A stretch of 62,459 nt of DNA, the filler included, from an uncultured Methanosarcinales archaeon (lineage in GTDB: Archaea > Nanobdellota > Nanobdellia > Woesearchaeales > CAYMBN01), in the NCBI GenBank assembly GCA_964388715.1. It is 7 parts of 7 records of this genome, joined end to end, with 100 filler letters (N's around TTAATTAATTAA, not from the genome) between each part and the next. Parts side by side here need not be neighbours in the genome. Positions count along the whole stretch, not along the records: positions 29,016 to 37,816 come from CAYMBN010000019.1; positions 37,917 to 46,128 come from CAYMBN010000020.1; 5 more parts are not named here. One strand, 5' to 3'. The notes beneath the pieces are model-generated. The model saw nothing but the letters and a program-made list of their open reading frames with translations. It was not told the DNA's origin and ran no database searches. Below, piece after piece: positions 28,916-49,727 of the stretch. The position numbers were made by a program, and so were the translations under genes. How positions within the stretch are numbered: the first letter of the stretch is position 1; the number at the start of each line of letters is the position of its first letter.

Positions 28916-29015
28916 NNNNNNNNNNNNNNNNNNNNNNNNNNNNNNNNNNNNNNNNNNNNTTAATTAATTAANNNNNNNNNNNNNNNNNNNNNNNNNNNNN
29001 NNNNNNNNNNNNNNN
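28916..29015. other. Artificial contig spacer
   Basis: N44-TTAATTAATTAA-N44. Confidence 0.98.
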
Positions 29016-29300
29016 GTATATTTGGTTGATATCTATTTTTGGATTTTTAGCTTTGGCACGAGTAAGTTCTGTAGCAATATTCTCGTTTTTGTATTCACTA
29101 TAAAATCCTTTGTAGAATCCATAAATGTCTTCACTTACTTTAATTTGAATATTTATTTTTGAAGATAATATGTCATCTATTGTATTAGCATTTGATTTGA
29201 AAGAAGGATTAACAATTTGTGATATAATCAATCCTGAACAAAGTAAATCAATTGAAGCATTTTTTACATCAGTCCAAATACTTTCTGACCTAAATTTCAT
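29016..29300 (-). CDS. Hypothetical protein, 3'-truncated
   Basis: ORF runs into the gap. A minus-strand TATA-like TTTATATA lies at about 29324-29331. Confidence 0.5.
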
Positions 29301-29354
29301 ATACTTTTAAAAAGAAAACAACATATATAAATTTTACTACTTTTTAAGGGTTAT

Positions 29355-32300
29355 TTATTCTTCAGAAGGAGGTTGTGTTTCTTCTGTTTTTTCTTCATCT
29401 TTTTCTGTTTTAGGTATATCACTTGCATACTTTTGACTACAATCAAGACTTCTTTCTCTTAAGTAAATTAATCTTGTTGTTTCTCTTGTTTTATCTTTGT
29501 TATCTTTTACTTCTGCATAGATAGCTAATTGTTTTTTATCATTTTCAAAATATTTTTTTAATGGTTGTTTGTCCCAAACATAACCAACATTACTTATTCC
29601 TGGTTCATGTGATGGTGAATTGTCTGGGAGTAATGGTTCTGGTTCTTCTTGTTCATCTCTGTTAAGATAAACTGTTAATTCTTCTTGATTACAATCATCC
29701 CAAGTATTAACTTCAATTCTTAATGGTTTTTCAGGATTGCAATAAACTTCACTTACTGGTGTGATTATTTCTACTAAAGGTTCTTTTTCACAGTCTATTT
29801 TTTCTTGTTCTACTATTTTGAATTCAATTTCTTCTTTTTGTTCATCTTGTCCATAAGGAATTACCATGTCATCAGGGTCTGGTTTTTCATTATTATCAAG
29901 GTCTTTTATTAGTTTTAAGGTTAGTTTGTATTCTCCTGGTGGGTATTTTGGTTTTTTGTCTAAAGTTTGTTCTTTGTCAATTATAAAATTAAATTTATTT
30001 GTTTGATCTAATCCTTCTTCGTTGTAAGGAATAACATCAACTGAAAAAGGAACTTTATCTTTTGGTGCGTAAGCTTCAACATAAATTTCATCCCAAATCT
30101 GATTTTCTTTGATATTACAATCAGCAGTTTCTCCTTTATAACTGCATGTTTTTCCACCAAATATTATTTTTTTAATAGTGATTCTTTGAGTTGTTGGAGC
30201 GGCAATTTGGAATTTGTCTTTACTGTTTTGTAACTTTGTTTTTTGATCTTCAGATAATTTTATCTTACCAACATAGTATATCTGTTTTTGGTTTGTATCA
30301 TCTTCTCCAATCTTCATTAGATTAACATTCAGTGTTACTTCGTCTTCTTGGCTGAAGAGGTCTTCTGTTTTTGGGGTTGCTACATGGATTAGTTTTTCTG
30401 GTTCTTCTTCGCCTGGTCTTAGGATATCATATGCAATGAAAAAGTATCTGTCTTGGAAATTAGAGTTCTTTAGTTTTAATTTTACTTTAACATCATTGCC
30501 TGCATAGAATTCTGAATTTTTTGGGCTGAGCTTTACTTCGTCTAACTTAATTGAACCATAATGTGATTGTTGCATTGCTCTGCACCAGATCATGTTGTCT
30601 CCAAATGGGTTTGTGTTAATACCGCATGCTTTTACCATACCACCTTTGTGTACAATGTCTGTTGTAAGTATTCTTTCTTTTATCTCAGCACCACTTGAAT
30701 ATGTTAATGTAAGTCTTGCTTTGTTAAACCAATAATTAGCATCTTCGTCATTCCATTCAATGTTTCCAGTTAGTTGTGAATCTGCTCCAATATAACCACT
30801 TTTATTATCACTTACTCTTCTGTTTGGACAGTATTCATCACCATGTGCACCTTTTTCACAATAAAGTTCTAGTTTCCAGTTAATTGGTTGGCCACCACTA
30901 TATACTCCTGGTGTTACACTGTATCTTATTGTTACTGTTCCTTTGAATGGATTGTACCTGTAGACACGTGAGTCAGCCATTAATGGTAAGATTGTTGGTT
31001 CTGCTGGTACTGTTTCAATCATACCAGTGAGTTCATCTTCTAGACCTGTCCAGTCTTCGTTCCAAGCTGCCATACATACTTGTTTTACAACTTGGTCAGT
31101 GCTTAGGCCAAATCTGTTATTGAAAACTCCTTGGTAACGATCACCAAGTTCTTTGTTAACTGCTTGGAATTGTGTTCTTGTGTTGAAACCATCTGCTCTT
31201 TTTTGTGGATTTTTCGGATCTGTTTTTTCTGCATCATATCTTTTGTTTTCAAGAACTTTCATAACACCCCAGGATATAAAGTCGCAAGCATACATTGATA
31301 ATAATCTTTCACAGTATCCACCAGAAACTTCACCTTGTTGTGCTTCTAGTAAACATTTTTTAGCTGCATTGAAAATCTTTTCTAGGTTTTCAAGATGTTT
31401 TGCCATACCACTTATACAAACACAATTTGTGCTTGTCCAGATATCGTCAAATGGATTGACATCTTTCATTCTTCTTTTGTCAAAGATTCCAAGACATTTT
31501 AGATCGTCATATTCAGAAGGACCTGGTAAGTAGCAACCTCGTGGACCAGTTAGTTGTGGTGCTGTTTCTTGATTTTTTAAATCCTTATAAAATTCTTTTT
31601 TAGTGAGTTCTGTACATACAACTGTTTTTCTTGATTCACCTGCAATTAATCCTCCCCAGATTAAATCTTGTTGGCCTGCTGTTGCATCATAGTTATATGT
31701 TTTTTCTTGGATTGTTCTTTCAACTACGTATTGATCAGCAGGGCACATGTTTCTTTCTTTGTAATCATTTCCTGTTTGACCTGTGTGATACAATGACATT
31801 GAACCATCTCTGTATTTATCTGTATATGCGATTTCGTTTTCACCTTTACCTCTTGTTTTGAATTCTAGTTTTGCACATTCAGGAGGAACATATGGGCAAC
31901 CTACTCTGTCACATACAGTAAAAAGTAGTTTTCTTTCTGATTCTGTAAGTGGTGTACGTGAGATATAACCTTTAATATTAAACCATGTTGTTAATAAAAG
32001 ACATCCGCCCATTGTGTACATTGCAGTGTCTCGTACAATTGGTACAATGCTTGATAAAACATCTAGGCTTTTGTTAATGAATTTTAAGAGTGAGTTGATT
32101 GTGTTCATGCTTAACCATGAACCTTCTTCTAATGGCATGTCAACGTCAATTGTTTGTTTGATGTAAACATGTTCCATTGGTTGAGATTCTCCTTCATAAT
32201 CATATTGAATCATAAGTTTAAGTTCAAATTCAATTGGATCAGGGATATCATTAATGTTACCTGACCATTTGTCAAGTTTAAGTTCTGTGTAACCAAAGAT

Positions 32301-34100
32301 TTCTTTTCTGTCTGCATTGTAATGTGCATCTGTTTTTTGTACAGCAATCATATTATTATGTAATATTTGTGCACCTGTTGTTCTTACATCATCTATTCTT
32401 ACGTTTGTGATTTTTTGTGGGTCACGTACAAATCCAACAGGGTTGATTGTAAAAACAAGACCAAGCGGAATACTTATTTTTTTAACTTCTCCTGCAACTA
32501 CATAACCAGGTGATAATGAACTTTCACCCACTCTCCAGAATTCGCTGCCAGGGTCAAACTTAATATCTTTTTTGACTGGAGATATTTCATTACCTGCTTT
32601 GTCTCCTGCCATTATCCATAATGTGTTTCTACCTTGAGAAGTTTTTGTACCAAGTGCTGTGAGAGCAACTTTGATTTCAAAATTACCGTTTGCATCTGTT
32701 TGAACTGTTTTATGATCTTTTGCATATTCAATCTTACCCATCATCTGTTCTAGATTGAATGTGCCACCTATTTTTGTTGAAGTATCAACAGAAGGTGCTG
32801 CACCGCCTTTTATACCTGCACCATAACCTTCATTTACATTTTCAAAACCATATTTGCCTGTTGTCCAGTTAAAATATGGTGGCCAGTTTGAAACATTTGC
32901 TAAGTTAGCTATTCTTACATAACCTGGTTCATTTAATTGTCCTGTTATGGTTGCAATTTGGAAATGAACTTCATCAGGTACATCCATTTTAACAAATGAA
33001 GGTGGTTGGTTATCAAATGATAATGTATGTTTAATTATTTCTTTGTTACCTGCAATGTCAGTTGCTGTAATTGTGATATTATTTTCTCCTTGAGCAAATC
33101 CTGACAGGGTGAGGTTGAAGTTTCCTTCTTTAACTTCTCTAGCTGTTACCTTATTGTTATTTATTGTTGTTTGTAGGTAGATGTTTTTGCTAACAGATGC
33201 AATCAGGTTAAGTGTTGCTTTATTTGTACTTTCAGGAATTTCAATATTAATTTCAGGAGGTGTTGTGTCAAGTGTTATGTTAAGATATTCTGTGTATTTA
33301 TTTTGACTAATATCAATTGCTTTTATTTTAATTTGGTTAAGACCGTTTCTTAGTTCGTAGTCGAGAGTGAATCTTCCTTCTTGATTTGAGTTTGTTAATA
33401 CTGCGTTTGTTTCTGAAAATTCGTATGCAATCACTGTACAGTTTGGTTCTGTTAAACCTGAAATGTTTAATATGTTCTGATTTGTTGCTGCATTTAGTTG
33501 GTCAAGTGTGATAACTGGTGGTGTGATATCAAGTTTTGTTTTAAGGTTTCTTATCCTTGTGTCTTTGTTAATCAAGAAGTAATATGTTGTTTCTTTTTTT
33601 AGGTTGTTGATTATGATAGAATGTTCTGTTGTTTCTAGAGTTTCTGATTGGGATTTGTTAAGTTGGTTAATATCTTCTCCGTATCTTATTAATGAGGTTG
33701 ACGGGTGGTTGGTTATCCATTTGATTATTGCAGAGTCAAGTGTGATGTTTTCAATTGATATATTTGATACTAGGAATGTTGTAAACTTGTCTAGTACTGA
33801 ATCAAACTCGTCTTTAAATGAAGAGGATACTTTATAATAATATTCTTGACCTGGTTCAAGACCTGTTAGGTTTAATGAATGTGTGGTTGTGTTAAGGTTA
33901 CTTGATTTGGTTCTGCTAAGGTCAGGGGTTATACTGTATTCTACCTTTGTATCAGCTGGTTTATCTGTTTCCCATGTGATTTGTTCAGTGTGTTGGTCAA
34001 CTGGTTCTGCCTGTATATTACTTATTGAAACTGCTAATGACATAGGTATCATTATTATTAACATGCATACAAGTATTGCTAGTTGTTTTCTTGTTTTCAT
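29355..34100 (-). CDS. 1581-aa secreted protein: 2 FnIII/purple-acid-phosphatase-N-like domains, Ig-like domains, Cys-rich amphipathic helical domain
   Basis: Signal peptide; ITWETD..ADTKVEY...HSLNLTGLEPGQEYYYKV (FnIII-like, twice); DTTPP/DIAGN Ig-like repeats; central Cys-rich region shared with 42210-45338. Confidence 0.8.
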   Translation of the reverse strand: MKTRKQLAILVCMLIIMIPMSLAVSISNIQAEPVDQHTEQITWETDKPADTKVEYSITPDLSRTKSSNLNTTTHSLNLTGLEPGQEYYYKVSSSFKDEFDSVLDKFTTFLVSNISIENITLDSAIIKWITNHPSTSLIRYGEDINQLNKSQSETLETTEHSIIINNLKKETTYYFLINKDTRIRNLKTKLDITPPVITLDQLNAATNQNILNISGLTEPNCTVIAYEFSETNAVLTNSNQEGRFTLDYELRNGLNQIKIKAIDISQNKYTEYLNITLDTTPPEINIEIPESTNKATLNLIASVSKNIYLQTTINNNKVTAREVKEGNFNLTLSGFAQGENNITITATDIAGNKEIIKHTLSFDNQPPSFVKMDVPDEVHFQIATITGQLNEPGYVRIANLANVSNWPPYFNWTTGKYGFENVNEGYGAGIKGGAAPSVDTSTKIGGTFNLEQMMGKIEYAKDHKTVQTDANGNFEIKVALTALGTKTSQGRNTLWIMAGDKAGNEISPVKKDIKFDPGSEFWRVGESSLSPGYVVAGEVKKISIPLGLVFTINPVGFVRDPQKITNVRIDDVRTTGAQILHNNMIAVQKTDAHYNADRKEIFGYTELKLDKWSGNINDIPDPIEFELKLMIQYDYEGESQPMEHVYIKQTIDVDMPLEEGSWLSMNTINSLLKFINKSLDVLSSIVPIVRDTAMYTMGGCLLLTTWFNIKGYISRTPLTESERKLLFTVCDRVGCPYVPPECAKLEFKTRGKGENEIAYTDKYRDGSMSLYHTGQTGNDYKERNMCPADQYVVERTIQEKTYNYDATAGQQDLIWGGLIAGESRKTVVCTELTKKEFYKDLKNQETAPQLTGPRGCYLPGPSEYDDLKCLGIFDKRRMKDVNPFDDIWTSTNCVCISGMAKHLENLEKIFNAAKKCLLEAQQGEVSGGYCERLLSMYACDFISWGVMKVLENKRYDAEKTDPKNPQKRADGFNTRTQFQAVNKELGDRYQGVFNNRFGLSTDQVVKQVCMAAWNEDWTGLEDELTGMIETVPAEPTILPLMADSRVYRYNPFKGTVTIRYSVTPGVYSGGQPINWKLELYCEKGAHGDEYCPNRRVSDNKSGYIGADSQLTGNIEWNDEDANYWFNKARLTLTYSSGAEIKERILTTDIVHKGGMVKACGINTNPFGDNMIWCRAMQQSHYGSIKLDEVKLSPKNSEFYAGNDVKVKLKLKNSNFQDRYFFIAYDILRPGEEEPEKLIHVATPKTEDLFSQEDEVTLNVNLMKIGEDDTNQKQIYYVGKIKLSEDQKTKLQNSKDKFQIAAPTTQRITIKKIIFGGKTCSYKGETADCNIKENQIWDEIYVEAYAPKDKVPFSVDVIPYNEEGLDQTNKFNFIIDKEQTLDKKPKYPPGEYKLTLKLIKDLDNNEKPDPDDMVIPYGQDEQKEEIEFKIVEQEKIDCEKEPLVEIITPVSEVYCNPEKPLRIEVNTWDDCNQEELTVYLNRDEQEEPEPLLPDNSPSHEPGISNVGYVWDKQPLKKYFENDKKQLAIYAEVKDNKDKTRETTRLIYLRERSLDCSQKYASDIPKTEKDEEKTEETQPPSEE

Positions 34101-35959
34101 TTTATTGAAGGTATGTATCTACTTGATTCTGGAAGTATTGTTGAGTCCCACATTTTTACAAATTCTTCTGTTGTTTTTGGTACAGGTGTTTTTGTTATTA
34201 CTGAAAATTTGAGTTTTTGTGCGTTTTTGATTATGTCATAGTCAGCTTTCCATTTGTTAAGTTGAAGTCCGCCAAAGAGTTTTTCATCTTTACCTAATTT
34301 TATGCTGATTTCATATTCATAATCGCCAAGTTCAATTGTGATATTGTTTTGTAATGGGTAAATGATTGTTTCATCTGTTAATGTTTTGAGATTTTTCATG
34401 CTGAAAATGATTAATTCGCCTTCTTTGAGTTTACGTTTTGTTTTTTGTGGGTATGTTACAATGTTAAAGTCTAGGTTGATTGTTTTTAATGGTGTCATTA
34501 TTATGTTTGTTGAAAGTTCTGTCATTTCTTCTGCTATAGTAACATGTTTTGTTGCGTCTTTGTAACCTGGTTTTTTTGCGATTAGCAGTCCATTAATACA
34601 ATATGGAAACTTTGTTTCAAGTGCTGGTTCTGAACCATAAATTTCAACTCTTGTGCCTGGGTACATTTGTTTTTGGGTTACACCCATGTCACATTTGAAT
34701 TGGACACATTGGAATTCTATGCTTGTGTTTTCAATTGATTCTGCTGTTTCTTTGTCAGAAGCATATACTTTGAATTCGTAAAGTGTATTTAAACAATAAT
34801 CTAAGCTTGTGAATCCTAATGGTACTTGTTCTGGTACAAAAATGTTAAGTTCTCTGTCTGCTTTATTATCACGCATTATTACTGGTGTTGCAAAGTTAAA
34901 TGTGTAACCTGTTTCGTCGTCGGTAAGTTTGAATAAAATTGGAAATTCAATATCATATCTGTGATGGAATATTTTGAAACATGTACCTACAATTGGTACT
35001 TTTGGGTTGATTGGTTTTACAATATCACCACTGTTTGGTCTTACATTGAGTCTTGTTATTCCAAACTTTGCATCGTAGATTGTATCAACTTTAATATCTC
35101 GATAATTTTCACGTGTTAAGTTAATATGATAAAGTTTTCTGTAATATTCATATTCTGGTTCAAGATATTTTGTGTTTTGGAATGTTAAATAATGTAAATT
35201 TCTTCTAAATAGATTTTTTAGTGCTGGTTTAATATCGTTTTCAATTGACCAGGCCATTCCTGAGCATGTTATATCCATTCCTTCATAAGGTAAGCCTGAT
35301 GTTGCAATAATTTCTAATGCACGTTGTTCAAGAAAAGCTTCATTATTTTCCTTTTCCATAATTAATTTTGCTAGGTCATGCATTTTTCCTAGCTTTGTGT
35401 CAATAAAGACTTTGAATTTTGGTAAGTTAAATTTCTTTGTTGTGAATTGATCTTGTACTTTTACTTGATAATTGATGTAAAGGACAATATCTTGTTTATT
35501 GATCTTAGTTGTTATGATTGGTTCTGTGTCATTGATTTGGAACTTATCTTGGAAAGATTGAAAATTGTTAACGCATGTTTTTAGATTATTTGTAACATAT
35601 TCTGAGATTTGTTGGCCTATTTTGATTTTGGTCGGAGTGGTATCTTGTTGATCAATGTACCAGTAAGGTACTTTGAATGTTGAGTTTGGAAGTAATGAAA
35701 CATGTTTAGTTGGATCGTTTAATATTTCAGGTGGAATGTCTATGTAACCTCCTCTTAAACCTAGTTGAATAATTGCGCTTTGTGCATGATCTCTTACACA
35801 GGTTTCAACAAATTGTTTTAAAGGGACAATCTCGTCAGGAATGATTATTTCTTCAATTATTGTTGTACGTTCTTTTATGTAAAAGAAGATTCCTGTTGCA
35901 ATTATAAGTATCAAACCCATAATTACAAAGATTGATATTTGTGACCTCTTTTTTTTCAT
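34097..35959 (-). CDS. Large type-IV-pilin-like protein with class III signal peptide (paralogue of 40124-42223)
   Basis: MKKKRS/QISIFVIMGLILII, plus FVETC..LG.RGGY..VPYW..C motifs shared with its paralogue. Confidence 0.75.
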   Translation of the reverse strand: MKKKRSQISIFVIMGLILIIATGIFFYIKERTTIIEEIIIPDEIVPLKQFVETCVRDHAQSAIIQLGLRGGYIDIPPEILNDPTKHVSLLPNSTFKVPYWYIDQQDTTPTKIKIGQQISEYVTNNLKTCVNNFQSFQDKFQINDTEPIITTKINKQDIVLYINYQVKVQDQFTTKKFNLPKFKVFIDTKLGKMHDLAKLIMEKENNEAFLEQRALEIIATSGLPYEGMDITCSGMAWSIENDIKPALKNLFRRNLHYLTFQNTKYLEPEYEYYRKLYHINLTRENYRDIKVDTIYDAKFGITRLNVRPNSGDIVKPINPKVPIVGTCFKIFHHRYDIEFPILFKLTDDETGYTFNFATPVIMRDNKADRELNIFVPEQVPLGFTSLDYCLNTLYEFKVYASDKETAESIENTSIEFQCVQFKCDMGVTQKQMYPGTRVEIYGSEPALETKFPYCINGLLIAKKPGYKDATKHVTIAEEMTELSTNIIMTPLKTINLDFNIVTYPQKTKRKLKEGELIIFSMKNLKTLTDETIIYPLQNNITIELGDYEYEISIKLGKDEKLFGGLQLNKWKADYDIIKNAQKLKFSVITKTPVPKTTEEFVKMWDSTILPESSRYIPSIK

Positions 35960-35960
35960 T

Positions 35961-36683
35961 TTATTGTTTATATATTAATGTAAAATAATTACGTGACCAT
36001 GCCATGAATACTAGTAAAAAGATTATTGAGATTATTACTTGGATTAATTGTGATGCATTTTTGAAGATTAATGATACAATTGATAGTAGTATGAAGGTTA
36101 TTATGATTAGTATTAGTGTTGGTAGGTATTTTGGAAGTTTTGTTATTGATGTTTTGAATGATTCTGCTAATGTTCTGAATACTTTTTCTTTTAATGTGAA
36201 TGTTATGTTAATGATTAATGTAAGGTATGTGATTATAAGTAGTAAAGGTAGGACTATAGTTGGGGATGTTGGTTGTATTAAGATGAAAAGTATGATTATT
36301 GTTCCAAGCCAAATCAGGTTAAGTGTATAAAATTTGTAAAAATAAGTTAGTTTTAGTTTCTTTTTTAATATTATAGACCAGATAATTCCTTTGAATATTG
36401 TGTAGATTAATACTATAAGTAATATGTAAAATATGTAGAGAAATATTGCTTTGTAAACAAACTGTGATGCAATTGATGTTTGTTGGTAAATTTGTTCAAT
36501 TGGTACATCAATCAGGTTTGTGTTGAATTGCGGAATATTTTGTGATAGGGATAGTAATAGATTAAAGAATGACATTACTATGTAATATAATAATGCGAAC
36601 AGTGCAAAGTCTAATAGGATTGTGATTAGGAATTTCTTGTTAAGGTTTTTTACACTTTCCGCATAGAGTTTTATTGATTTCAT
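35961..36683 (-). CDS. Polytopic membrane protein (about 6 TM)
   Basis: 240 aa, highly hydrophobic, with an ATGA overlap to the upstream gene. Confidence 0.75.
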   Translation of the reverse strand: MKSIKLYAESVKNLNKKFLITILLDFALFALLYYIVMSFFNLLLSLSQNIPQFNTNLIDVPIEQIYQQTSIASQFVYKAIFLYIFYILLIVLIYTIFKGIIWSIILKKKLKLTYFYKFYTLNLIWLGTIIILFILIQPTSPTIVLPLLLIITYLTLIINITFTLKEKVFRTLAESFKTSITKLPKYLPTLILIIITFILLSIVSLIFKNASQLIQVIISIIFLLVFMAWSRNYFTLIYKQ

Positions 36684-39600
36684 ATGTTGTCTGGAATAAG
36701 TGATGTTGGATCACTTGATGTTGATTGTGATGTTGAGGTGGTTTGTTGTTCTGAAGAGACTGGTTGGCCAGAGTGTACTACTACTGGTCTGTCTCCTAAT
36801 GAACCAAAGCTGAATAAGCCTCCTAGGAATGTGTCTATGCTGTCTAGTTCTGAAACATATGATTGTTCGTAGTTAAATTTATTACATTGTTCATCTCCTT
36901 CTAATGTTATTCTTAAGTCATCTGCGTTTGCGAATTTTAAACATAGTTTGTTGTAGTCATTGGATGATATGAATGTTGTTTCATTACCACTTGCAATCAG
37001 TGCTTGGCCTTTGGTTTTTCTGTTGTTTTTGTAAAGATTTTTAGAGGTTGTTCCTTTTTTGAGAATTACATTGAATTCTGGTTGTGCTCCTGAACAGCTT
37101 GGGTCAACCTTGAATGTGACAACGTAAAGATATTCTTGTTGTGTTGTGTCGTCTTTTTTACACATATTGTTTGTACATGTGAAATCATCTGAACAATTAT
37201 TATCGTGTGTACATTCTTTTGGGAATGGACCATATTTTTCTCCTGCAATGTATGAAAAGATGTTGTTGTAATAAGGGCCATATTTATCTCCTTGTAGGAT
37301 TGGAGCTGTTCTTATATAACCGTCACAACCATAACCAATTACAACTGTTTCAGCTGCTTTTTTGATTCTATCTTTACATATGTTTGTTGTGACTGATTCG
37401 ATTCCTCCAAGTACTCCAAAGAGTTCTTCTGTGAGGAACTTTTCAACATCTCTTGCCCATCTTGCTGTGAATTCTGGCATAAGAAGTGTTGATAATCGTT
37501 GTCCAAGGCCAGCTGTTTGGGTTGCTTTATTAACCCAATAGTCCATCTGTGCTCCACTACGTCTTACTTTGTAAATACGGATTTGTTCTGTATATTGTGA
37601 TTTGAGTTCTTGTTCTGCTTTTGTTAATGTGCCTGTTTTTGCTTTAAGTGTTTCTAGGGTATTTTTTTCTGGATCATCATCAAAAATATAATCTGTTGTT
37701 GTTTCTTGACCTTCTTTAATTTCAATAACCTTGCCTGAAATTGGTTTACCATTATCATCTATTTTTAGATGAGATCTTCCTATTTCTTTTTTACCATCTT
37801 CTGAATATTTATGTGTNNNNNNNNNNNNNNNNNNNNNNNNNNNNNNNNNNNNNNNNNNNNTTAATTAATTAANNNNNNNNNNNNNNNNNNNNNNNNNNNN
37901 NNNNNNNNNNNNNNNNTTTTTAGATGAGATCTTCCTATTTCTTTTTTACCATCTTCTGAATATTTATGTGTGATTGTTGTTCGAACACCTGTGAATTTTC
38001 CTGTCTTAGGATCACGTTCTTTGATTACGTCTTTTTTAATTTGACCTTTTTTTGTTTCTATTGTTTGTTGATTATACTTTTTACCATCTATATGTTCAAT
38101 TACAGTTAGTTCTCTTGTTACTTTCTTATCTTTATATCTTTTTTCAGTTGTTGTCTTTTTACTTGTTTTACCATCTTGTTCATAGGTAATAATTCTTTGT
38201 GGTTGTTCTATTTTGTTATTTTTGAAGTTTGATTTAACTTCTGTGTTCCCTTCTTGAACTGTAACTTGGTATTTTGTATTCTTGTTTGAATCTTTAATTG
38301 TGATTATTCCGTTTTTAACTGTTTCATCATCAACCTTACTCTCCTTAATCATAAATTCAACATTACCTTTTTCTGAGAATCTTGTAAATGTTTTCTTGTC
38401 TTTTTCTCCTAATTCAAATGAAACTAAATCATTTTGAATGTTTATTTCTCCTTTTTGACCAGTAAGTTGGATTTTTACATCTTGGGAAGGTATCCATTCT
38501 CCATCTTCATCTTTTTGTTGGGTTTTGACAATTGCACCACCTATAAAATTACCATAAGATGTTTTGGTTTCACTGTCTCCTTCACCTGTTACATAATATT
38601 CAAAAAGGACCCCTCCTTCTCCTGGTTCCTCGTTAAAATCTGTTATTTGTCCAAGCTTAGCTGGTGAGAAAACTTCTGGAATATTAACTTCTTTTCCATC
38701 TGTGCGATGTAATGTTGTTGAGGTTGGTTTGCCATCTTGTCCGTAGTTTATTGTGCCGTGTTCTCCCCCACCAAAGATTTCTGTTTGTTTATCAAATGAT
38801 AAGTCTTGTCCTTGGGCATTTCTTTTTCTAATTAATGTATAAGAACCTGTTCCATCTATTTTGTATGTGTAAACATTTCCATCTTGTTTTTGTAGATGGA
38901 ATAGTTTTTGACTACCTTCAAAAAATACTTTTGAATCTTTAACAAATTCTGCAGGAGGTTTATGTGCTTCCCCAGCATTTCTGTAGATTTTATTAACTGG
39001 ACCTTGCTCTTGTGTAGTTGTTATGTCACTAGGAGCAAAAGGACTTGCTGGAACATCTTGAATTGGTGCTACTTTTATTTTTTGATTGATTTGTGTTGTA
39101 AATTCATCTTTTGAATTAAATGCTGGTTCTATTATCTGTCCAAATCTGTTATCATAATTGTAAGTTTTAACTTCATTATTTTCATCAATAAAACTTATTG
39201 TTTTGAAATCATCATCAGAGTAATATAAAATCTCTTCAGAATCTTTTTTCTTTACAACAGTGAATTTTTCTCCATCACTAAATTCAAAATTTTCAAATTC
39301 TAGTGTTGAATCTTCTTGAGTGATACTTGAATGTAGGTTTTCAACAATATAATGGTTAATTGAATCAGATTGTAATTTTTCAATTGTATAACCTGTAGAT
39401 TTATATTGTCCACCGGTATCCTTTATATAAATTTTCTTGTCCTTGATATAACCTTTTCCTTCTGTTAAAGCTGCCCAGATTGGTTGGAAATCTTTATTTT
39501 CTTTATTTTTGTAGTATTCTAAAAGTTCTTGTGAAGTAGCAGAACCTAAATTTAACTGTTCATTTATATCAATTGGTGTGTATTCTGAAGTTGTTTCTAC

Positions 39601-40131
39601 TTTTGCTGATGCTTCTGTGCCTGAGGTAATTGGTCCATCTCCCCCTCCGCCTGATTCAGTTCCTGTTAAACTTACTACTACTTGACTGGCTGTTTTACCT
39701 TCTGGGATGATTCTTCCTGAACTTGTTATTAATGAACTTCCACGATCAATTCCTTGTAATGAGTAACTATTTAATGTATATGCTTGGTAAGGTTTCCATT
39801 TGCTATTGTCAATTTTATCTTGATATTTTTGTAAGTCACTTGTTCCTGTATTTAATCTTTTAAATGGATCTGTTGCACCATCAAGAGTTGAGATAAGTAT
39901 ATCTTTTATAGTGTCTCCTTGTTTGATGACTGCAACCATTCCAGCGTCTTTATATGCTTTTTCATCATCAGATATTGTGTCATAATATTCAATTGTTTGT
40001 TCAGATGTAACCATACCAGTAACCATTCCAGTCACCTGATTTGAATTAGATTCTGGGAGTAAGTAGACTAGTGTTCCTATCATGATTAGGAAGATCGTTA
40101 CAAGTATCCACATTGTTAGTTTCTTATTCAT
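36680..40131 (-). CDS. ~1098-aa N-terminally anchored surface protein, reconstructed across the assembly gap
   Basis: 37762-37816 is identical to 37917-37971 (55 bp). Removing 155 nt joins the 756-aa and 288-aa ORFs in frame with no stop (…GRSHLKIDDNGKPISG…RRSGAQMDYWVNK…). Confidence 0.85.
37817..37916. other. Artificial contig spacer between two overlapping contigs
   Basis: N44-TTAATTAATTAA-N44, flanked by a 55-bp exact overlap. Confidence 0.97.
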
Positions 40132-42223
40132 TTTTGAGTCTTGGGATTACCTTTGTTCTGTATTTTTGTGAGTATTCTTCTACTCTGCCCATCTCTGACA
40201 TGTCTTCATGAGTTAAACTAGTTGTTTGGCCTGGTGATGCAATTGCATAGAATATTATTGTGTCACTGTTGTCAAGATTGTATGATTTTATGTTTACTTT
40301 GTCTAGTTTTGCGCCACCATATGGGAATGGACTTGGTAAGTTAAGTCTAGGGATGACTATTGTTCTTTTTTTGAAAATTCCTGTTCTAACTTTTCTTGAT
40401 TGTTGTGGGATTACAATGTTTTTGTATAACAATAAGTTGACTTCAAGTGAATATTTGCCTGGGACTAAGTCCATTGTAGGTGTTTCATTGCCTCGCATTA
40501 CTAGGACTTGGTCAATTACTTGTTCTTGGCCAGGGATTGTTTGTTTTAGTAATGATATTGTAGCTTGTTCATCATCTGCTAACTCTCTTGGAATAGGGTT
40601 AAGTGTCCAGCCAAAATCTGTTTTTCTTGTTTCATATACCATTACTTTGACTTTTCTTTCTCTAGGAGGATCAATTTTAATCTCAATGTTTTCATTTTTG
40701 TCAAGTTGTGTTGTCAAGAGTTTTGATTCTGAGTAAAATCCTGGGTTGACTGCCATTAAGACTCCGTTTAAGCAGATAGGTAGTTTGCCTTTAAAGGTTC
40801 CTTGATCATCGGTTATGCCAACATCACAAGCAATATTAGAACAGATATATCTGATTGGACTATCTGGTTCATATGCTTGAGTATGTTTGTTAAATACTTT
40901 TACTGTTATGTTTCCTGAATTTCTTTGTGCTTCATCACATATCATTGTCATGCCTTCAACTTGTTGTGTTAAAGGTGGGTTTGTGGTATTGATCCAATCA
41001 TTACTTCTTATGTTACTCTCAAGTGCAAGATAAAACCTGTAACCTTGTCTGTTGAATGCGTTTGGATCATAGATTTCAATTAAAACAGGATAACTAACAT
41101 CGTAATTGAATTCATAACGTTTTATGCCTAATGGAATGAATGGGATTGGTGAGGAAACTACATCTGGTTTACATAGTTCACCACCACAGTCAAGGTCAAA
41201 GTAGATTGGGAATATTGGTAAGTATGTGAATTCAAGATTTAGGTCATCATATGAATTGTTTAGTGGGAGAATCATATTATCATATATTGTTTGTGAAGTA
41301 TCGTCGTTTGTTATGATTCTTTCATAGTTAGCTGTATTGGTTGCCTGAAGTATATCAACATTGTCTGCTAATCTTTCTTCTATTTTTTGTTTGACTTTTG
41401 TCTTTAGCCAGAACTTGTATGGGCCTAGGTTGAATTCTGCTGCTGAGATTGGAGGAATATCGCTCTCAAGTGAAGCAAAAGCTGTTATGATATTTTTTGT
41501 ATTTGTTTCAAGGTATTTGTGTTTGATTTCAAGATCTGCAACTTCTTTTGCAAGACCGTAAACTTTCATTAAGTTAACAGGTAGCTTTACCCAGAAGTTT
41601 TCTATTGTTGCAGAAGTGTCTGCTTTTTGTGTTTTAACTGGAAGTTCTGTTTGAACTAAAACATCTTGTTGTCTGATAGTGATTTGTGTTTGTGGTTGGC
41701 TAAATACATCAATTGTGAAACCTTGTTTTTTTAGTTCTGTAAAACCATTGAAACAATCTATTAGGTTTTCATTAACATAATCTTGAACTTGTGTTTCAAT
41801 TGAATTCAATGCAGGACCTCTTAATGGAGGAATGTTTTGTTCAAAAACATAACCAAACTTTCCATTGTTAGGACTCTTTAAATGGTGCCAGTATGGAACT
41901 TTTGTTGTATAAAATGTAAGTCCTTGTTTTTCAGTTGGGTTTGTGTTTAACAATGGAATATTAAATTGATCTACTTTTACATATCCTGAATGTTGGCCAA
42001 GTTCAACAACTGCATCTTTAGATGTTTGGGTTAAACAGGTTTGGATAAAGTTTCTTACTGGAAGTAGTGTGTTTGGAACTTGTTCAATGCTTGGATCTGC
42101 AATTGTTTCAAACTTTTGTTCAACAGTACGTGTTCTTACATAATAAAATAATGCAGTGCTAAATACTAGAATGATTCCTATTATTATGAATACTGTTATT
42201 TGTGCTTTTTTAGATTTCACCAC
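40124..42223 (-). CDS. Large type-IV-pilin-like protein with class III signal peptide
   Basis: MVKSKKA/QITVFIIIGIILVF, then FIQTC..LGQHSGY..VPYW..DC..YDVSYPVL..C..CDVG..PICLNG. Confidence 0.75.
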   Translation of the reverse strand: MVKSKKAQITVFIIIGIILVFSTALFYYVRTRTVEQKFETIADPSIEQVPNTLLPVRNFIQTCLTQTSKDAVVELGQHSGYVKVDQFNIPLLNTNPTEKQGLTFYTTKVPYWHHLKSPNNGKFGYVFEQNIPPLRGPALNSIETQVQDYVNENLIDCFNGFTELKKQGFTIDVFSQPQTQITIRQQDVLVQTELPVKTQKADTSATIENFWVKLPVNLMKVYGLAKEVADLEIKHKYLETNTKNIITAFASLESDIPPISAAEFNLGPYKFWLKTKVKQKIEERLADNVDILQATNTANYERIITNDDTSQTIYDNMILPLNNSYDDLNLEFTYLPIFPIYFDLDCGGELCKPDVVSSPIPFIPLGIKRYEFNYDVSYPVLIEIYDPNAFNRQGYRFYLALESNIRSNDWINTTNPPLTQQVEGMTMICDEAQRNSGNITVKVFNKHTQAYEPDSPIRYICSNIACDVGITDDQGTFKGKLPICLNGVLMAVNPGFYSESKLLTTQLDKNENIEIKIDPPRERKVKVMVYETRKTDFGWTLNPIPRELADDEQATISLLKQTIPGQEQVIDQVLVMRGNETPTMDLVPGKYSLEVNLLLYKNIVIPQQSRKVRTGIFKKRTIVIPRLNLPSPFPYGGAKLDKVNIKSYNLDNSDTIIFYAIASPGQTTSLTHEDMSEMGRVEEYSQKYRTKVIPRLKNE

Positions 42224-45200
42224 AAATATCTCCTCCTAGTTCCCATTCTTTGTTTTCAACAAATCTTTGAATATCTTCAAGTGCATCGTTTATTGCTGGT
42301 AATACACTGGTAAGTAAGCAGCCAACGTGTGTAACTCTTGTTTCTGTGTTTAGATGTGTACAGGTTCGACCTAAAACTAATCCAAGTAATCCTAAAGGAC
42401 TTGAGATTGCTGCTTTGAATCTTTGAAGTATGCCATTGAGTAGGTTTGTTAATGGGAATGTGTAAAATAACTGTCCCCAAACATATTTACACAACATGTA
42501 ACCACGTGCTGTTTGACATGCTGCAATAGGTGCACCTGCTTTGACATCATCTTGTAAACATTGGACATATCTACATTCGATTTGTCTTGCTTTTTTAAGA
42601 TTGTAAATAACGCCTGGGATACAGCCAATGCTTAAGCTAAGTATGATAGATTCTTTAAAGTCAATACTGTCTAGAATGCTTTGACTTGTAAAACCTTTAC
42701 CCCATAATTGGTTTGACAATACTGAAGATGTTTTACCTGATTTTAATTTTTGATCAAGTGTTTCTGCCCAATCATCCCAGAAACCTTGTTTACAAGAGAT
42801 ATATTTACAGAAATGGCTTAGTCCTTTAAAGAATCCGTTGTAAGTTACGTGGTATGCTTCATTAGCAGCGCCTTGTGCAACTGCAATTCCTTTAAAAGGT
42901 GTAAAGTCGAGTGGACCAAACAATAATTCAATTGCTTCAAACAGTCTTGCAATGCTACCAAGTACATTTACAAATCTACATATTTGTTCTGCAATGTTTT
43001 GTATTTCAATTAATTGGTCAAGGAATCCATTGCTTAACAACCATGAGCCTTTGACAGCACTGATCTCGTTCTTGACTGCTTTGTCCATTGAACCTCTTGA
43101 TGTGAGTGGAACTTCAATTGTGAAATGTTCTGTTTCCAGTTTAGAAAGTTTTTGCATGTATTGTGATTTTATCTTTAATGAACAGTTGAAGCTTAGGTTT
43201 GTATCTTCTATTGAATCTTCTTGTCTTTCAAAAGGAAATTTGATTATTAAGTCTGTTGCACCTGGGAAACAGTTTAGACATGTTGGACCTTGTTCTGTTA
43301 AGTATTCTGTTGAACCTTGACAATTGCCAAGTGCAATGTCTAGTGTTTTTAATTCTTCTTGGATTAATCCACTTGGTGGAACTAGTTTTATATTACCAAA
43401 GATTCTGTGACTTGTGTATTTCATTGTGTCACTGTTGATTACTTTTGGCATTGGATCTTTTGTGATTGGTGTCCAATAATTTGCATCTGCTTCATCGTTT
43501 TCAAGCACTGTTATTCCTGGATTGTTTACAACTTCATTGCCTACTTTGTCTATGAATGTTAAATATATTGAGGCATTTTTTATGTATCCTGTGACTGGGC
43601 CAAGATTGTTCCAAGTACAAGTGTAAACAGGAGTTTGGTTTGTACAAGATGCTTTTGCTAAGCCTGCAACTCCTACTGAGCTTAGGTTTGCATAGGCTTC
43701 TTTGATACCAGAAACACTGTCTCTTATCTTTGCTTCAATATTAAGATAATCTCCGTGTGAATAATAATCATTTCCAGCTGCTGTTTTTATTTTTGCAGGT
43801 TCTACAAGGTTTACTTTAATATATTTGTTTCCTAGGTCTTTTTCTACTTGTTCTCTAGCAACATAATCTGTGACTGACGAAACTTCATTGTCAACTTTTA
43901 GGATTGCTTCACTTTCTCCTTCAACATATGTTAATGAATCATCAAAGCTTAGGTCTGGTTTTAGATAAACAGGTAAACTTCCTTGTTTTTCAGAAACTTC
44001 AAGATAAGTATAACATTCCCATGTTTGTGAATCTGTTTTATTACAGTGTGTCATTGGTGTTGTTTTTCCACTGTACTTTGAGTTAAGTGCTGATGCGTCT
44101 ATAACAATTCCATGACCTTTGACTGTTGGACTGTAATCATAAACATTATAGAATCCTGATTGTGATTCTGTTATTCTTACTATTATTTTGTTTAATCCTG
44201 GTTTTACAAATTTACCATGTTCGCTGCCAATAAATGTTACTTTTGGTACATCTATATCTATTAGTAAGTTTGATGCTCTTGCTTGTTTTTCTGTGATAAG
44301 ATCATATTGGTCTGTTGCTTTGATTTTTATTGTAGGAATCTTGTTTAATTCAAGTGACATGTCAATCTTGACAAAACAAATGTATTCATCATTTACTTTG
44401 TTACATCCTTTTGCAGCTGTGTTAATGTTTGCTAGTTCATTAGGGTTGTCAATGGTTAGGCTTTTGTATGCTTCTGATAAATGTGCAACAGTTGATAGTG
44501 CAGATGCATCTACTTCTACTTTTGTAAGTTTTGCTTCTTGGATTCTGAACTCAGCTCTGACATCTTTTAGTGTTTGAGTTGAACCATAGATAAGTTGTTT
44601 TCCACCTTGGTATAATCTTAGTTCTTCACTTATTGTTGGAGCTGATGTGTCGACTTCAAATTCATTGGTTTCTGTTTGTGCAAAGTTGTTTACTCCGTCA
44701 AAGACTTGCACTAAAAGTGTTTTTTGACCATTGCCTTGCATGTCTAATTCTTTTATCTCATCATAGGTTTGTTGTTGGTTAACATCAATCTCTTCAATAA
44801 GTTCATCATCTGCAAATATTTTTATTGTTTTTATACCAGAGCCTGGATCAACAGCACTTCCGTCTGATGTTACTAAATGTAATGATGGTTTTTTACCTGG
44901 GGTGACTTGGGCTGTGTCAATAATAGGTTCAACAACATCTGGTACAAGATAACTTTCTTGTTTATCATCTTGTCTAAAGCTTTGATCATAAAGTTTGATA
45001 AAATATTTGACTCTTCCAAGGTCATCTACTAAGTCTGAGAATTGTATTAAGTTAGAGGTGTAATTACATCTGTATGTTGTTCCACTTACTTGTGAACAGC
45101 TGTCAAATGGTTTGTCTGCAGGATAATCATGTGGACCAATCCTTACTTGTTCTTTTTCAACTGTTCCTCCTGATGTTGTTACACTTATTTTAACCTGGTC

Positions 45201-45338
45201 TTCTGGTCTGATCCAGTTTTCAATATTGTCTTGGCCTGTTGATTTTATAGTAAGAATTTCATACTCAACACTAAAGCAAACTGGTAGTGTTAAGATTATT
45301 AAAATCATGAACATTGCAGCTTGTAGTTTTAATTTCAT
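42210..45338 (-). CDS. 1042-aa secreted protein: tandem Ig-like domains + C-terminal Cys-rich amphipathic helical domain
   Basis: Signal peptide; repeated C-x7/8-Y-x-C Ig-like units and D..GN motifs; a C-terminal domain homologous to the central part of 29355-34100. Confidence 0.8.
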   Translation of the reverse strand: MKLKLQAAMFMILIILTLPVCFSVEYEILTIKSTGQDNIENWIRPEDQVKISVTTSGGTVEKEQVRIGPHDYPADKPFDSCSQVSGTTYRCNYTSNLIQFSDLVDDLGRVKYFIKLYDQSFRQDDKQESYLVPDVVEPIIDTAQVTPGKKPSLHLVTSDGSAVDPGSGIKTIKIFADDELIEEIDVNQQQTYDEIKELDMQGNGQKTLLVQVFDGVNNFAQTETNEFEVDTSAPTISEELRLYQGGKQLIYGSTQTLKDVRAEFRIQEAKLTKVEVDASALSTVAHLSEAYKSLTIDNPNELANINTAAKGCNKVNDEYICFVKIDMSLELNKIPTIKIKATDQYDLITEKQARASNLLIDIDVPKVTFIGSEHGKFVKPGLNKIIVRITESQSGFYNVYDYSPTVKGHGIVIDASALNSKYSGKTTPMTHCNKTDSQTWECYTYLEVSEKQGSLPVYLKPDLSFDDSLTYVEGESEAILKVDNEVSSVTDYVAREQVEKDLGNKYIKVNLVEPAKIKTAAGNDYYSHGDYLNIEAKIRDSVSGIKEAYANLSSVGVAGLAKASCTNQTPVYTCTWNNLGPVTGYIKNASIYLTFIDKVGNEVVNNPGITVLENDEADANYWTPITKDPMPKVINSDTMKYTSHRIFGNIKLVPPSGLIQEELKTLDIALGNCQGSTEYLTEQGPTCLNCFPGATDLIIKFPFERQEDSIEDTNLSFNCSLKIKSQYMQKLSKLETEHFTIEVPLTSRGSMDKAVKNEISAVKGSWLLSNGFLDQLIEIQNIAEQICRFVNVLGSIARLFEAIELLFGPLDFTPFKGIAVAQGAANEAYHVTYNGFFKGLSHFCKYISCKQGFWDDWAETLDQKLKSGKTSSVLSNQLWGKGFTSQSILDSIDFKESIILSLSIGCIPGVIYNLKKARQIECRYVQCLQDDVKAGAPIAACQTARGYMLCKYVWGQLFYTFPLTNLLNGILQRFKAAISSPLGLLGLVLGRTCTHLNTETRVTHVGCLLTSVLPAINDALEDIQRFVENKEWELGGDICGEI

Positions 45339-45841
45339 TTTGTTTGTAGTTTTAGGAATTTTGTAATATAATTATTATCATGGATAATGAGGGAGTTTTT
45401 GAGTAAGTCAATAATTTCTTTATCTCCTTCAAGATATTTTGAATCAAAGTCTGACTTTAAGATAGAACCTGGTTGAACTGTTTGAGAAATGTGTGTTAAG
45501 GTGTAAGAGTCTCCTTTTTTTGTATAAAGAACAGCTATAATGTCTTTGTTTTGGATTGATTCATATTCTTGGATAATCTTTTTAGAATTTTTTTGTTGGT
45601 ATATTGTGTCAAGGTCAAATGTTTTTCTTAAAGAAAGTGTGAGGTAATTAGACATATTTGCTTGATAACGTTTATTGATTTGTTTGATTAGGTCTTTTTT
45701 TGTTAAAACTTTTAGGAGATTATATATTTGTGATTTTGAAACTTTTGTGTTTTTAGCAATATCTTTTGTAGAATGAGCTGTAAAACAATTCTGTGTTAGG
45801 AACTTTAACACTTCTAGTTCAGACTTGTTGTTTATGTTCAT
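45335..45841 (-). CDS. Winged-helix transcriptional regulator with a possible degenerate nucleotidyltransferase-like C-terminus
   Basis: HTH motif LEVLKFL...STKDIAKNTKVSKSQIYNLLKVL..KDLI. First gene of the operon (ATGA overlap). Confidence 0.7.
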   Translation of the reverse strand: MNINNKSELEVLKFLTQNCFTAHSTKDIAKNTKVSKSQIYNLLKVLTKKDLIKQINKRYQANMSNYLTLSLRKTFDLDTIYQQKNSKKIIQEYESIQNKDIIAVLYTKKGDSYTLTHISQTVQPGSILKSDFDSKYLEGDKEIIDLLKNSLIIHDNNYITKFLKLQTK

Positions 45842-45843
45842 AT

Positions 45844-46016
45844 TCCAATTAATTGGACTTTTACACCTTTTTTTTGTTTTGTTATTATAATAAATTGGAT
45901 ATTTTTATGTTTTTTGGTTGTTTTGTTTTATTTTTTGATTGTTTTTACATAAAAAAGTGTGTTTTTGTACTTTTTTATTAACTTATTCCAATATAATGGA
46001 ATTCAAACTATATAAA
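45844..46016 (-). promoter_or_regulatory. Promoter with two TCCA-N6-TGGA palindromic operators
   Basis: Perfect 14-bp palindrome tccaattaattgga at 45844-45857, 2 nt from the start codon. attccaatataatggaat at 45985-46002 lies just downstream of a minus-strand TTTATATA at 46009-46016. Confidence 0.65.
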
Positions 46017-46128
46017 TGTTTTGATTTAAAGAATATTGGAAATAAGTCTCTTTTTTTGGAAAAACTGCAAATAATGTTAATTACCCCCTCTTTAGGATAG
46101 GTAAGTAGAAGTAATATATAAAGGTTAA

Positions 46129-46228
46129 NNNNNNNNNNNNNNNNNNNNNNNNNNNNNNNNNNNNNNNNNNNNTTAATTAATTAANNNNNNNNNNNNNNNN
46201 NNNNNNNNNNNNNNNNNNNNNNNNNNNN
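46129..46228. other. Artificial contig spacer
   Basis: N44-TTAATTAATTAA-N44. Confidence 0.98.
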
Positions 46229-49535: not shown

Positions 49536-49727
49536 ATGAAAAAAAAGAACAAAATACCACATTGTGATTATAATGGTACTTGTAAAAATAAAGCTTATAG
49601 AGAAGTTTTTCCAAGTTTACTAGGTGGAAAACATAAGAATAGAGGATGGAGTTATCTTTGCAGAAAACATTATTATCAGGAACAAAAAAGATTTAAAGGA
49701 AAACTCCCTAATTCAGATCTTGATTAA
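49536..49727 (+). CDS. Small basic C3H zinc-finger-like protein
   Basis: 63 aa with the motif CDYNGTC...WSYLCRKH. It directly abuts the antitoxin gene. Confidence 0.5.
   Translation: MKKKNKIPHCDYNGTCKNKAYREVFPSLLGGKHKNRGWSYLCRKHYYQEQKRFKGKLPNSDLD

Follow-up and report, generated by a model that had tools for sequence, protein, structure and literature searches.

Proteins with prepilin-type signals, together with secreted accessory proteins, are already known as a kind; what is new in the operon described here, seven minus-strand genes (g1 to g7) at positions 29355-45841 of a 62,459-nt stretch of DNA from an uncultured archaeon (assembly GCA_964388715.1; the whole stretch is referred to as the window), is its particular composition and the very large, uncharacterized family to which two of its products, g3 and g6, belong. 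Among the nearest described systems is the bindosome of the Sulfolobales, which a survey of archaeal filaments presents as a set of large binding proteins with class III (prepilin-type) signals (GlcS, AraS, and TreS) loaded onto a type IV filament (T4F) base, BasEF; there, they are taken to be substrates of the prepilin peptidase that are then placed on this base (PMC13705601). As described there, they are large, nonfilament class III-signal proteins encoded at a distance from the ATPase and platform genes, and g3 and g6 are like them in both respects (PMC13705601). Unlike the bindosome proteins, g3 and g6 have no solute-binding domain and no adjacent ABC transporter, carry a +1 Gln motif of their own, and are each paired with a giant secreted partner.

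In Epd-type pili, the pilins have Gln at +1. Pilins of this type (clade 1, or system 1) are reported in 1990 Nanobdellati genomes (PMC13705601), and Epd-type loci are described as containing large putative tip adhesins and several minor pilins (PMC4858521); g3 and g6, at 620 to 700 aa, greatly exceed those minor pilins in size. More broadly, archaeal type IV pilus (T4P) loci are described in the same source as containing large class III or secreted Cys-rich proteins in the role of adhesins, minor pilins, or S-layer-like components, and an analogy to PilY1 is drawn for proteins of such loci (PMC4858521). Epd-type loci carry EppA and large DUF2341 "PilY-like" proteins, whereas neither DUF2341 nor EppA, ATPase, or TadC was found in the cluster and its neighbors. 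Bacterial modular and minor pilins (PilB and PilC of Streptococcus sanguinis, GspK, and PilY1-associated pilins) join a pilin N terminus to a large grafted module, and in these systems a Sec-exported, nonpilin adhesin is borne by pilin-like partners, the same concept as that proposed below. No sequence or fold match links g3 and g6 to these bacterial proteins, however; their partner proteins are unrelated, and their motif belongs to the archaeal type, having F at +5 where bacterial pilins have E.

The SlaA/SlaB S-layer of the Sulfolobales, like the operon, combines a giant secreted, beta-rich protein with a membrane-anchored beta-sandwich partner; the operon differs in having two paralogous pairs plus g4 and g5, and Cys-rich proteins. 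We also considered the arCOG01314-associated putative secretion system (Makarova 2015), which shares with the cluster its archaeal membrane and secreted immunoglobulin-like (Ig)-domain proteins, and set it aside: the components by which the source defines it (PMC5898192), a DUF4350 protein, a MoxR-type AAA+ ATPase, and a vWA protein, are absent from g1 to g7. The cluster and its motif were not described in the literature covered on DPANN pilins, class III signals, protein families, and the Woesearchaeota surface.

We propose that the operon encodes a cell surface assembly of two old, parallel modules, each consisting of a pilin-like carrier and a giant secreted partner and serving surface attachment, and we give this reading about an even chance. 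The genes are as follows, all on the minus strand.

45335..45841, minus strand: g1, 168 aa, probable winged-helix regulator (sub-threshold Pfam matches), overlapping g2 by 4 nt
42210..45338, minus strand: g2, 1042 aa, secreted, 24 Cys; signal peptide, Ig-like array, Cys-rich helical domain
40124..42223, minus strand: g3, 699 aa, GTG start, modular pilin-like protein; class III-type N terminus, alpha/beta and beta-sandwich domains
37917..40131, minus strand: g4, N-terminal part, 738 aa, cut by the contig end; hydrophobic anchor or signal at residues 7-25
36680..37816, minus strand: g4, C-terminal part, 378 aa; conserved Cys-containing domain with 9 Cys
35961..36683, minus strand: g5, 240 aa, polytopic membrane protein; about six hydrophobic segments, no Cys
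34097..35959, minus strand: g6, 620 aa, modular pilin-like paralogue of g3; leader, KRS, then QISIFVIMG
29355..34100, minus strand: g7, 1581 aa, secreted, 26 Cys; signal peptide, fn3 and Ig-like domains, central Cys-rich helical domain, further beta-rich domains
37762-37816 = 37917-37971: 55-nt overlap of two contig ends, within g4

The window consists of seven contigs placed end to end, and adjacency between contigs is established only at 37817-37916. In an all-against-all comparison of contig ends, a single overlap was found, between 29016-37816 and 37917-46128; it is exact, 55 nt long, and in the same orientation, and because they share this end the two contigs are adjacent. The g4 frame runs through the overlap (2215 + 1137 - 55 nt = 1098 codons plus stop), and the linker at 37817-37916, inside g4, is an assembly artefact, not biology. 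A first-pass annotation of this DNA had merged g4 in the same way, and its gene sizes and junctions (seven minus-strand genes meeting by overlaps or a 1-nt gap) were reproduced by the open reading frame (ORF) listing: overlaps of 4, 14, 8, 4, and 4 nt and one 1-nt gap. It was also right to see a six-helix membrane protein in g5 and to note that the operon encodes no enzyme or ATPase, no such domain being found in g1 to g7 with Pfam or NCBIfam. The overlaps show g1 to g7 to be a predicted cotranscribed unit; they are unexceptional for this genome, since comparably tight packing occurs in other gene runs of the window.

The g3 leader ends in SKKA and is followed by QITVFIIIGIILVFSTALFYY (KKA/QITVFIIIG), while g6 begins with MKKKRS followed by QISIFVIMGLILIIATGIFFY (KRS/QISIFVIMG); in both, a charged leader ending in [KR]-[G/A/S] precedes a hydrophobic stretch of about 20 residues, and among the window ORFs only these two have such a class III-type N terminus. 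A search with g3 returned 93 homologues at 23 to 35% identity, all annotated as hypothetical; those that are named come from Woesearchaeota, Nanoarchaeota, or uncultured archaea. Together with g3 and g6 these make up the 95 proteins on which the motif statistics are based. Q-[ILV]-[TS]-[VIL]-F-x-I-x-G occurs in 89 of the 95, and the six misses comprise three N-terminally truncated proteins and three near-variants that retain [KR][GA]Q. Among the 89 motif-bearing proteins, residue -1 is G in 49, A in 34, S in 5, and T in 1 (G/A/S in 88), with K or R at -2 in 80 and at -3 in 79; the near-invariant family signature reads [KR][KR][GAS]-Q-[ILV]-T-[VI]-F-I-I-I-G. The leader ahead of the +1 Gln varies from 4 to 76 residues (median, 10). 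The cleavage register is thus fixed and the leader length is free, as would be expected of a peptidase site and not of a plain membrane anchor. Judged by its sequence, this N terminus has the hallmarks of a class III (prepilin) signal of archaea, with predicted cleavage. The pattern fits the archaeal class III rule and, through its Gln at +1, the EppA/Epd type.

Behind the N terminus, g3 is a large modular protein. Its AlphaFold2 (AF2) model, built from 46 sequences, has a mean predicted local distance difference test score (pLDDT) of 89.4 and a predicted template modeling score (pTM) of 0.58 and shows a helix at residues 5-39, a linker, an alpha/beta region at about 50-410, and C-terminal beta-sandwiches at about 430-660. 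In Foldseek searches of PDB and BFVD, only the beta-sandwich part was matched, at TM-scores of 0.16 or less, by SdrD, Gram-positive pilins, teneurin, SlaB, and phage baseplate or fiber proteins; SlaB (8qox_B) was matched at E 2.4e-4 and a TM-score of 0.13, at the domain level. Two cysteines, C63 and C157, are invariant, and C429 and C466 are nearly so. Short homologues of the N-terminal domain were limited to two proteins, both lacking Pfam domains. In the PDB sequence-profile search the g3 family gave nothing beyond fn3/Ig matches or noise, and in the ESM Atlas g3 falls among unnamed archaeal clusters (Woesearchaeota and Nanobdellota) with no Pfam family.

The giant proteins g2 and g7 each start with a hydrophobic, signal-like segment and have no later segment at the 1.6 hydrophobicity threshold; because there is no hydrophobic segment beyond the signal peptide, they would need a partner to stay on the cell. 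Pfam finds fn3/purple-acid-phosphatase-N and Big_13 domains in g7 and none in g2. The AF2 model of g2 (25-sequence ortholog alignment; mean pLDDT, 71.4) consists of a beta-sandwich array at about 27-746 followed by an all-helical domain at 748-1042 of lower confidence (pLDDT about 45-80). Foldseek against PDB matched g2 only to generic Ig arrays, at TM-scores of 0.09-0.21, among them titin, mastigoneme, the S-layer proteins EA1 (8opr_A) and SbsB (4aq1_A), and alpha-2-macroglobulin. PDB sequence-profile searches with the g2 and g7 families likewise gave fn3/Ig domain matches or noise only, the ESM Atlas held nothing usable for the g2 helical domain, and in Pfam, NCBIfam, and PDB sequences no match explains any operon protein beyond its Ig/fn3 domains. 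Conserved cysteines are present in g2, g3, g4, and g7, and extracellular disulfides are therefore indicated.

The operon is internally duplicated. The two pilin-like proteins align by BLASTP at E 1e-36 with 24% identity over 525 aa. The two giant proteins do not: their best BLASTP match, in the Cys-rich helical region, has an E of 0.59 and is not significant. At the profile level, hhalign of 25 g2 orthologues against 8 g7 orthologues gave a probability of 97.6% (E 3.9e-12; 485 columns), and the g2-family hidden Markov model (HMM) found g7 in the window at E 1.5e-14 and no other ORF save g2 itself, despite the presence of other Ig-rich giants. The HMMs of the two families match each other weakly and reciprocally on the Cys-helical motif, and the reverse search, with the g7-family HMM, did not reach g2 at E 1e-2. 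By these profile comparisons, g2 and g7 are remote paralogues.

Starting from a 15-sequence alignment, we scanned one genome per GTDB species for the peptide QITVFIII; of 248 pattern matches, 67, lying in 64 loci, were confirmed as relatives. Because the search pattern was exact, the 64 loci are not a census. By record title, 27 loci are from Woesearchaeota, 9 from Nanoarchaeota or Nanoarchaeia, 3 from Pacearchaeota, and 6 from an "archaeon" or "uncultured archaeon"; 18 are labeled "uncultured Methanosarcinales" (third-party assemblies) and 1 "Binatia bacterium," both labels being unconfirmed. With stop-to-stop ORFs labeled by phmmer and family HMMs, the recurrent order is g3-g2-g4-g5-g6-g7, often with 4-nt overlaps. 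It is uninterrupted in four loci (L021, L026, L027, and L035) and holds one or two unlabeled ORFs in six others (L003, L005, L029, L039, L041, and L047), and genes from both modules occur together in 20 of the 64 loci. Direct adjacency was found for g3 then g2 in 31 of 43 testable cases, with full-length g2 orthologues directly after g3; for g2 then g4 in 19 of 33; for g4 then g5 in 11 of 25; for g5 then g6 in 9 of 20; and for g6 then g7 in 17 of 26. These counts are lower bounds, since divergent partners stay unlabeled. All six cluster genes are present and co-oriented in the window, each detected by a family HMM or by phmmer/BLAST against the relatives.

The pairing within each module is old. 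We combined 59 pilin-like proteins of the loci with the two of the window (61 in all) in a FastTree phylogeny (LG+gamma, midpoint rooted), with sequences shorter than 550 aa or motif-free in the first 120 residues left out. All 28 genes with g2 downstream, together with the window g3, fall in a g3-type clade (36 tips; support, 0.99), and all 20 genes with g7 downstream, together with the window g6, fall in a g6-type clade (23 tips; support, 0.986). Neither clade has a gene preceding the partner of the other, the remaining tips having no identified downstream gene; because the sequences are related, these counts are not independent. Even so, the g3/g6 duplication is old, and its two products have each retained a giant neighbor of their own. 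The family is also very large. In a profile search against 1.84 billion cluster representatives (50% identity), the g3/g6 alignment matched 9607 of them at E <= 1e-3; 7188 passed a threshold of E <= 1e-10 and 2064 one of E <= 1e-30. The 150 top matches are full-length (679-888 aa), and the named records are from Woesearchaeota, Nanoarchaeota, or Pacearchaeota.

Shorter versions of the pilin-plus-partner arrangement also occur. In Pacearchaeota-type loci, shorter pilin-like relatives (250-450 aa) are each followed by a protein of 560-920 aa, and one locus (L058, "archaeon isolate SI048_bin8," 474-13803) holds four short pilin-like relatives (254-275 aa) within 13 kb, three of which directly precede an unannotated 560-650-aa protein; this is a locally expanded pilin-plus-partner unit. 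In a Pacearchaeota locus (L061:2587-4584, plus strand), a short pilin-like relative is followed by a 666-aa protein whose C-terminal end is a thioredoxin domain (Pfam E 1.1e-11), which suggests that extracellular disulfide chemistry is tied to the pilin-like family.

The first-pass annotation had read the operon as one stoichiometric surface complex with two prepilin-type proteins and an internal duplication, resembling no named system. Much of this stood. Both N termini were found as it had given them, and their class III-like behavior extends to the whole family in register, +1 Gln, and small -1 residue; the duplication is real and old for both pairs, that of the giants, unseen by BLASTP, being supported by profiles; synteny is conserved across many Woesearchaeota, Nanoarchaeota, and Pacearchaeota genomes; and no named system of this composition emerged from Pfam, NCBIfam, PDB sequences, PDB/BFVD folds, the ESM Atlas, or the literature. 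Other parts gave way. As a conserved set, the seven-gene unit is lineage specific, its winged-helix gene having no relative in the 64 loci; the g2-g3 order seen here is replaced by g3-g2 in relatives; and a single stoichiometric complex is not implied, because the cluster splits into modules that can sit apart in a genome.

For the operon proteins, we infer cleavage, filament incorporation, pairwise binding, and an adhesive role along the following lines. The two modules would be g3 with g2 and g6 with g7, with g4 (N-terminally anchored) and g5 (six-helix) as membrane-side components. A class III signal peptidase, encoded elsewhere, would cut g3 and g6 after [KR][GAS] and before the conserved Gln, and the freed hydrophobic helix would retain them in the membrane; alternatively, type IV filament machinery encoded elsewhere would lift them into a short stalk or pilus tip, in a manner comparable to that of bindosome binding proteins and of the modular or minor pilins of bacteria. 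Each pilin-like protein would hold its own giant, anchorless partner at the cell surface, and the exposed Ig arrays would attach, most plausibly to a host cell or surface. A role of the cluster in host contact is likewise something that we infer.

Several observations weigh against these attachment modules. Pilin and class III models of Pfam matched 0 of 46 g3/g6-family members at E <= 1, and those of Pfam and NCBIfam matched no window protein; no type IV pilin fold was among the Foldseek matches of the g3 model in PDB, and the linker behind the helix at 5-39 is of low confidence in AF2. Peptidase_A24, a VirB11-type ATPase, and TadC were found neither in the 32 other window ORFs (62 kb of genome) nor in 26 + 72 neighbor proteins of related loci, so that filament machinery is assumed here, not seen. 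The window order, g2 before g3, was unseen in relatives (0 of 33 testable cases). The cluster is separable into two modules, with g3-g2-g4(-g5) alone in seven loci (L004, L009, L013, L014, L022, L033, and L036) and g6-g7 alone in others (e.g., L031, L054, and L056), which weakens the case for a single fixed complex. From the C-terminal helices of its family, g2 might anchor itself. Finally, the cluster has a fixed housekeeping context in relatives, with ThrRS, MetRS, PTH2, S6e, SRP54, and TruD upstream, which looks like that of a core envelope component rather than an accessory adhesin.

With regard to the filament machinery, most of the 2942 Nanobdellati (DPANN) genomes in a published survey are reported to encode a T4F ATPase, platform protein, pilins, and signal peptidase, with the pilin genes scattered away from a close-set ATPase-platform pair (PMC13705601). 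An operon with no filament genes nearby matches the scattered-pilin pattern reported there for DPANN genomes (PMC13705601).

The housekeeping context leads to a serious rival with a real, if minority, chance of being correct: that the cluster builds a core envelope, or S-layer-like, scaffold. Under this explanation g2 and g7 would form a canopy over the whole cell, structural and not adhesive, and g3, g6, and g4 would be membrane-anchored stalks, as SlaB carries SlaA, the pilin-style N terminus being only a processed anchor. The cluster is vertically conserved, usually with one set per locus, beside housekeeping genes in several lineages, and this stable position is no less suited to a core envelope structure than to an adhesin; the very large family fits near-universal presence in these orders. 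The long beta-sandwich array of g2 is also of the expected kind, and EA1 and SbsB (for g2) and SlaB (for g3) are among the Foldseek matches. Those matches, however, are at the level of beta-sandwich domains (TM-scores of 0.09-0.13 for the three S-layer proteins; 0.09-0.21 for the structural matches overall) and are shared with titin, adhesins, and complement proteins, and no operon protein matches an S-layer family of Pfam or NCBIfam. In SlaB the anchor lies at the end opposite from the N-terminal anchor of g3, which counts against an S-layer, as do the 24 to 26 Cys per giant protein, a number unusual for lattice-forming S-layer proteins. A single lattice, moreover, would need neither a hypervariable g4 (430-1456 aa) nor two diverged modules. 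Cys-rich "S-layer-like" proteins are, on the other side, described in archaeal T4P loci (PMC4858521).

The helical domain of g2 opens further possibilities. In the window protein its C-terminal helices, three or four in the family, are borderline in hydrophobicity (Kyte-Doolittle, 1.24-1.49; 1.2-1.5 in round terms), and in several orthologues they are membrane-like (up to 2.58); such helices could form a self-anchor, a buried core, or a membrane-inserting module. There is an outside chance that the cluster is a core host-interaction machine, in which filament-extended carriers would present disulfide-locked helical domains that insert in the host membrane. If that were true, it would be the contact site or cytoplasmic bridge that feeds reduced Woesearchaeales-type DPANN cells and would bring a new class of membrane-engaging effectors with no PDB or Pfam relative. 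It is improbable, too, that the function lies in membrane engagement as such, with the Cys-rich, hydrophobic helical domains of g2 and g7, presented by the pilin-like proteins, entering a partner membrane to make a pore, bridge, or fusion site. The membrane-like helices would suit this, as would a g2 helical domain with no PDB sequence relative, and DPANN archaea are described as dependent on host cell contact (PMC11291902); yet there is no similarity to a known pore-former or fusogen and no known host, the helical domain is modeled at low confidence, and its hydrophobic helices might just as well serve as a self-anchor or form a buried core.

We also judge it unlikely that g3 and g6 are ordinary signal-anchored surface proteins whose N terminus is a type II anchor with no prepilin or T4F link, as the lack of pilin or class III model matches, the lack of filament machinery nearby, and the single helix followed by a linker in the AF2 model of g3 would allow, since a plain anchor leaves unexplained the invariant Gln placed precisely where the hydrophobic stretch begins, the small residue at -1 in 88 of 89 proteins, and the K/R at -2 and -3 behind leaders of 4 to 76 residues.

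Returning to the two attachment modules, their definition extends the idea of filament-mounted proteins (bindosome and modular pilins) to DPANN archaea. A large family with no curated model is now defined by a prepilin-type N terminus, a six-gene cluster, and strict pairing with giant partners, and the cluster offers targets for metaproteomics, labeling in cryo-electron tomography, and in vitro peptidase assays. To our knowledge, no Woesearchaeota or Pacearchaeota archaeon is in culture. If the cluster is an envelope scaffold instead, a gap in knowledge is likewise filled.

Among the remaining operon genes, g1 has Pfam matches below threshold at residues 5-60 (TrmB at 24.9 bits against a cut-off of 25.6; the winged helix-turn-helix of MCM_C; HTH_36) and weak NCBIfam matches to the Csa3 helix-turn-helix, Sta1, and Lrs14; no relative of it was detectable in the 64 related loci. 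There, a membrane protein of about 300 aa usually lies between the housekeeping genes and the cluster, either bitopic with a Big_9 Ig domain or polytopic. The bitopic form, with a cytoplasmic helical N terminus, one membrane helix, and an extracellular Big_9 Ig part, occupies the roughly 900 nt directly ahead of g3 in many relatives (L021, L026, L035, L004, L045, L033, and L020), and a polytopic protein takes the same place in four (L022, L023, L041, and L001). No homologue of this membrane protein was found in the window, where the winged-helix gene stands instead.

The complete g4 protein has, after its N-terminal anchor or signal, a long stretch that lacks Cys and is rich in K, T, E, and G. 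The variable protein encoded between g2 and g5 in relatives is its orthologue: it too begins with a signal or anchor, its gene frequently has a 4-nt overlap with the g2 stop, and its size ranges between about 430 and 1456 aa. When the C-terminal 380 aa of 23 such proteins were made into an HMM, the C-terminal part of g4 was its sole match in the window (E 5.8e-21); a BLASTP comparison of that part with g2 gave nothing significant (best E, 1.6). A 28-nt direct repeat in g4 (38163-38190 and 38724-38751; 79% identical) encodes ITYEQDGKT and INYGQDGKP. YD/Rhs-like repeats were considered for g4 and rejected: three loose Y-x-x-D-G-K-like motifs in the N-terminal part, and none to two in each of four orthologues, form no clear array. 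Relatives of g5 sit just upstream of g6, and a homologue search with g5 gave two proteins beyond itself. A protein identical to g5 is on record for two contigs, one of them (the longest) 36,813 nt in length, and a more contiguous assembly of the operon locus probably exists.

On either side of the operon the sequence soon stops, at 339 nt below g7 and at 287 nt above g1, and because the contigs end there no neighbor can be assigned beyond 29016 or 46128. The flanks and the assembly linkers are as follows.

45842..46128, minus strand: AT-rich upstream noncoding region, reaching the contig end
29016..29300, minus strand: partial ORF, 95 aa, cut by the contig end; starts 54 nt past the g7 stop, no family match
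16688-16787, 28916-29015, 37817-37916, 46129-46228, 51907-52006, and 57665-57764: assembly linkers, 100 nt each, identical (44 N, TTAATTAATTAA, 44 N)

The upstream region presumably holds the operon promoter, and the partial ORF could be an eighth operon gene. ORF calls that span linkers (e.g., 16736-26011, 28968-29300, and 57709-61848) contain linker sequence.

The contig placed in the window beside the upstream end of the operon carries a tyrosine recombinase of the phage-integrase family, XerC/D-like (46909-47736, plus strand), and a full-length MutL (49724-51469, minus strand); adjacency of either to the operon is not established. Other large surface-type genes also occur in the window. 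On a different contig from the operon, a giant ORF of at least 3074 aa (16788-26011, minus strand), cut by the contig end, encodes a very large surface protein in which a cohesin domain accompanies numerous putative metal-binding repeats of the MopE type (Pfam E 8e-62). Further large surface-type genes at 57765-62457 and 52007-56755 (both minus strand) gave no match to the g2, g3, g7, and g4 C-terminal family HMMs; one of them, of at least 1361 aa, has PKD, Big_9, cadherin-like, and He_PIG domains, and co-oriented ORFs of 1063, 315, and 207 aa there have no Pfam match. In Pfam, a contig-end ORF fragment at 16199-16687 (plus strand) resembles LpxC, the lipid A deacetylase, over its N-terminal part (E 1.5e-19); this is unexpected in an archaeon, and the fragment may be a horizontally acquired deacetylase or a binning contaminant. 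At 2538-7355 (minus strand), tightly packed genes for a PadR regulator, an ABC ATPase, a CARDB-domain protein, and two MacB/FtsX-type permeases form what looks like a MacB-type export or resistance operon.

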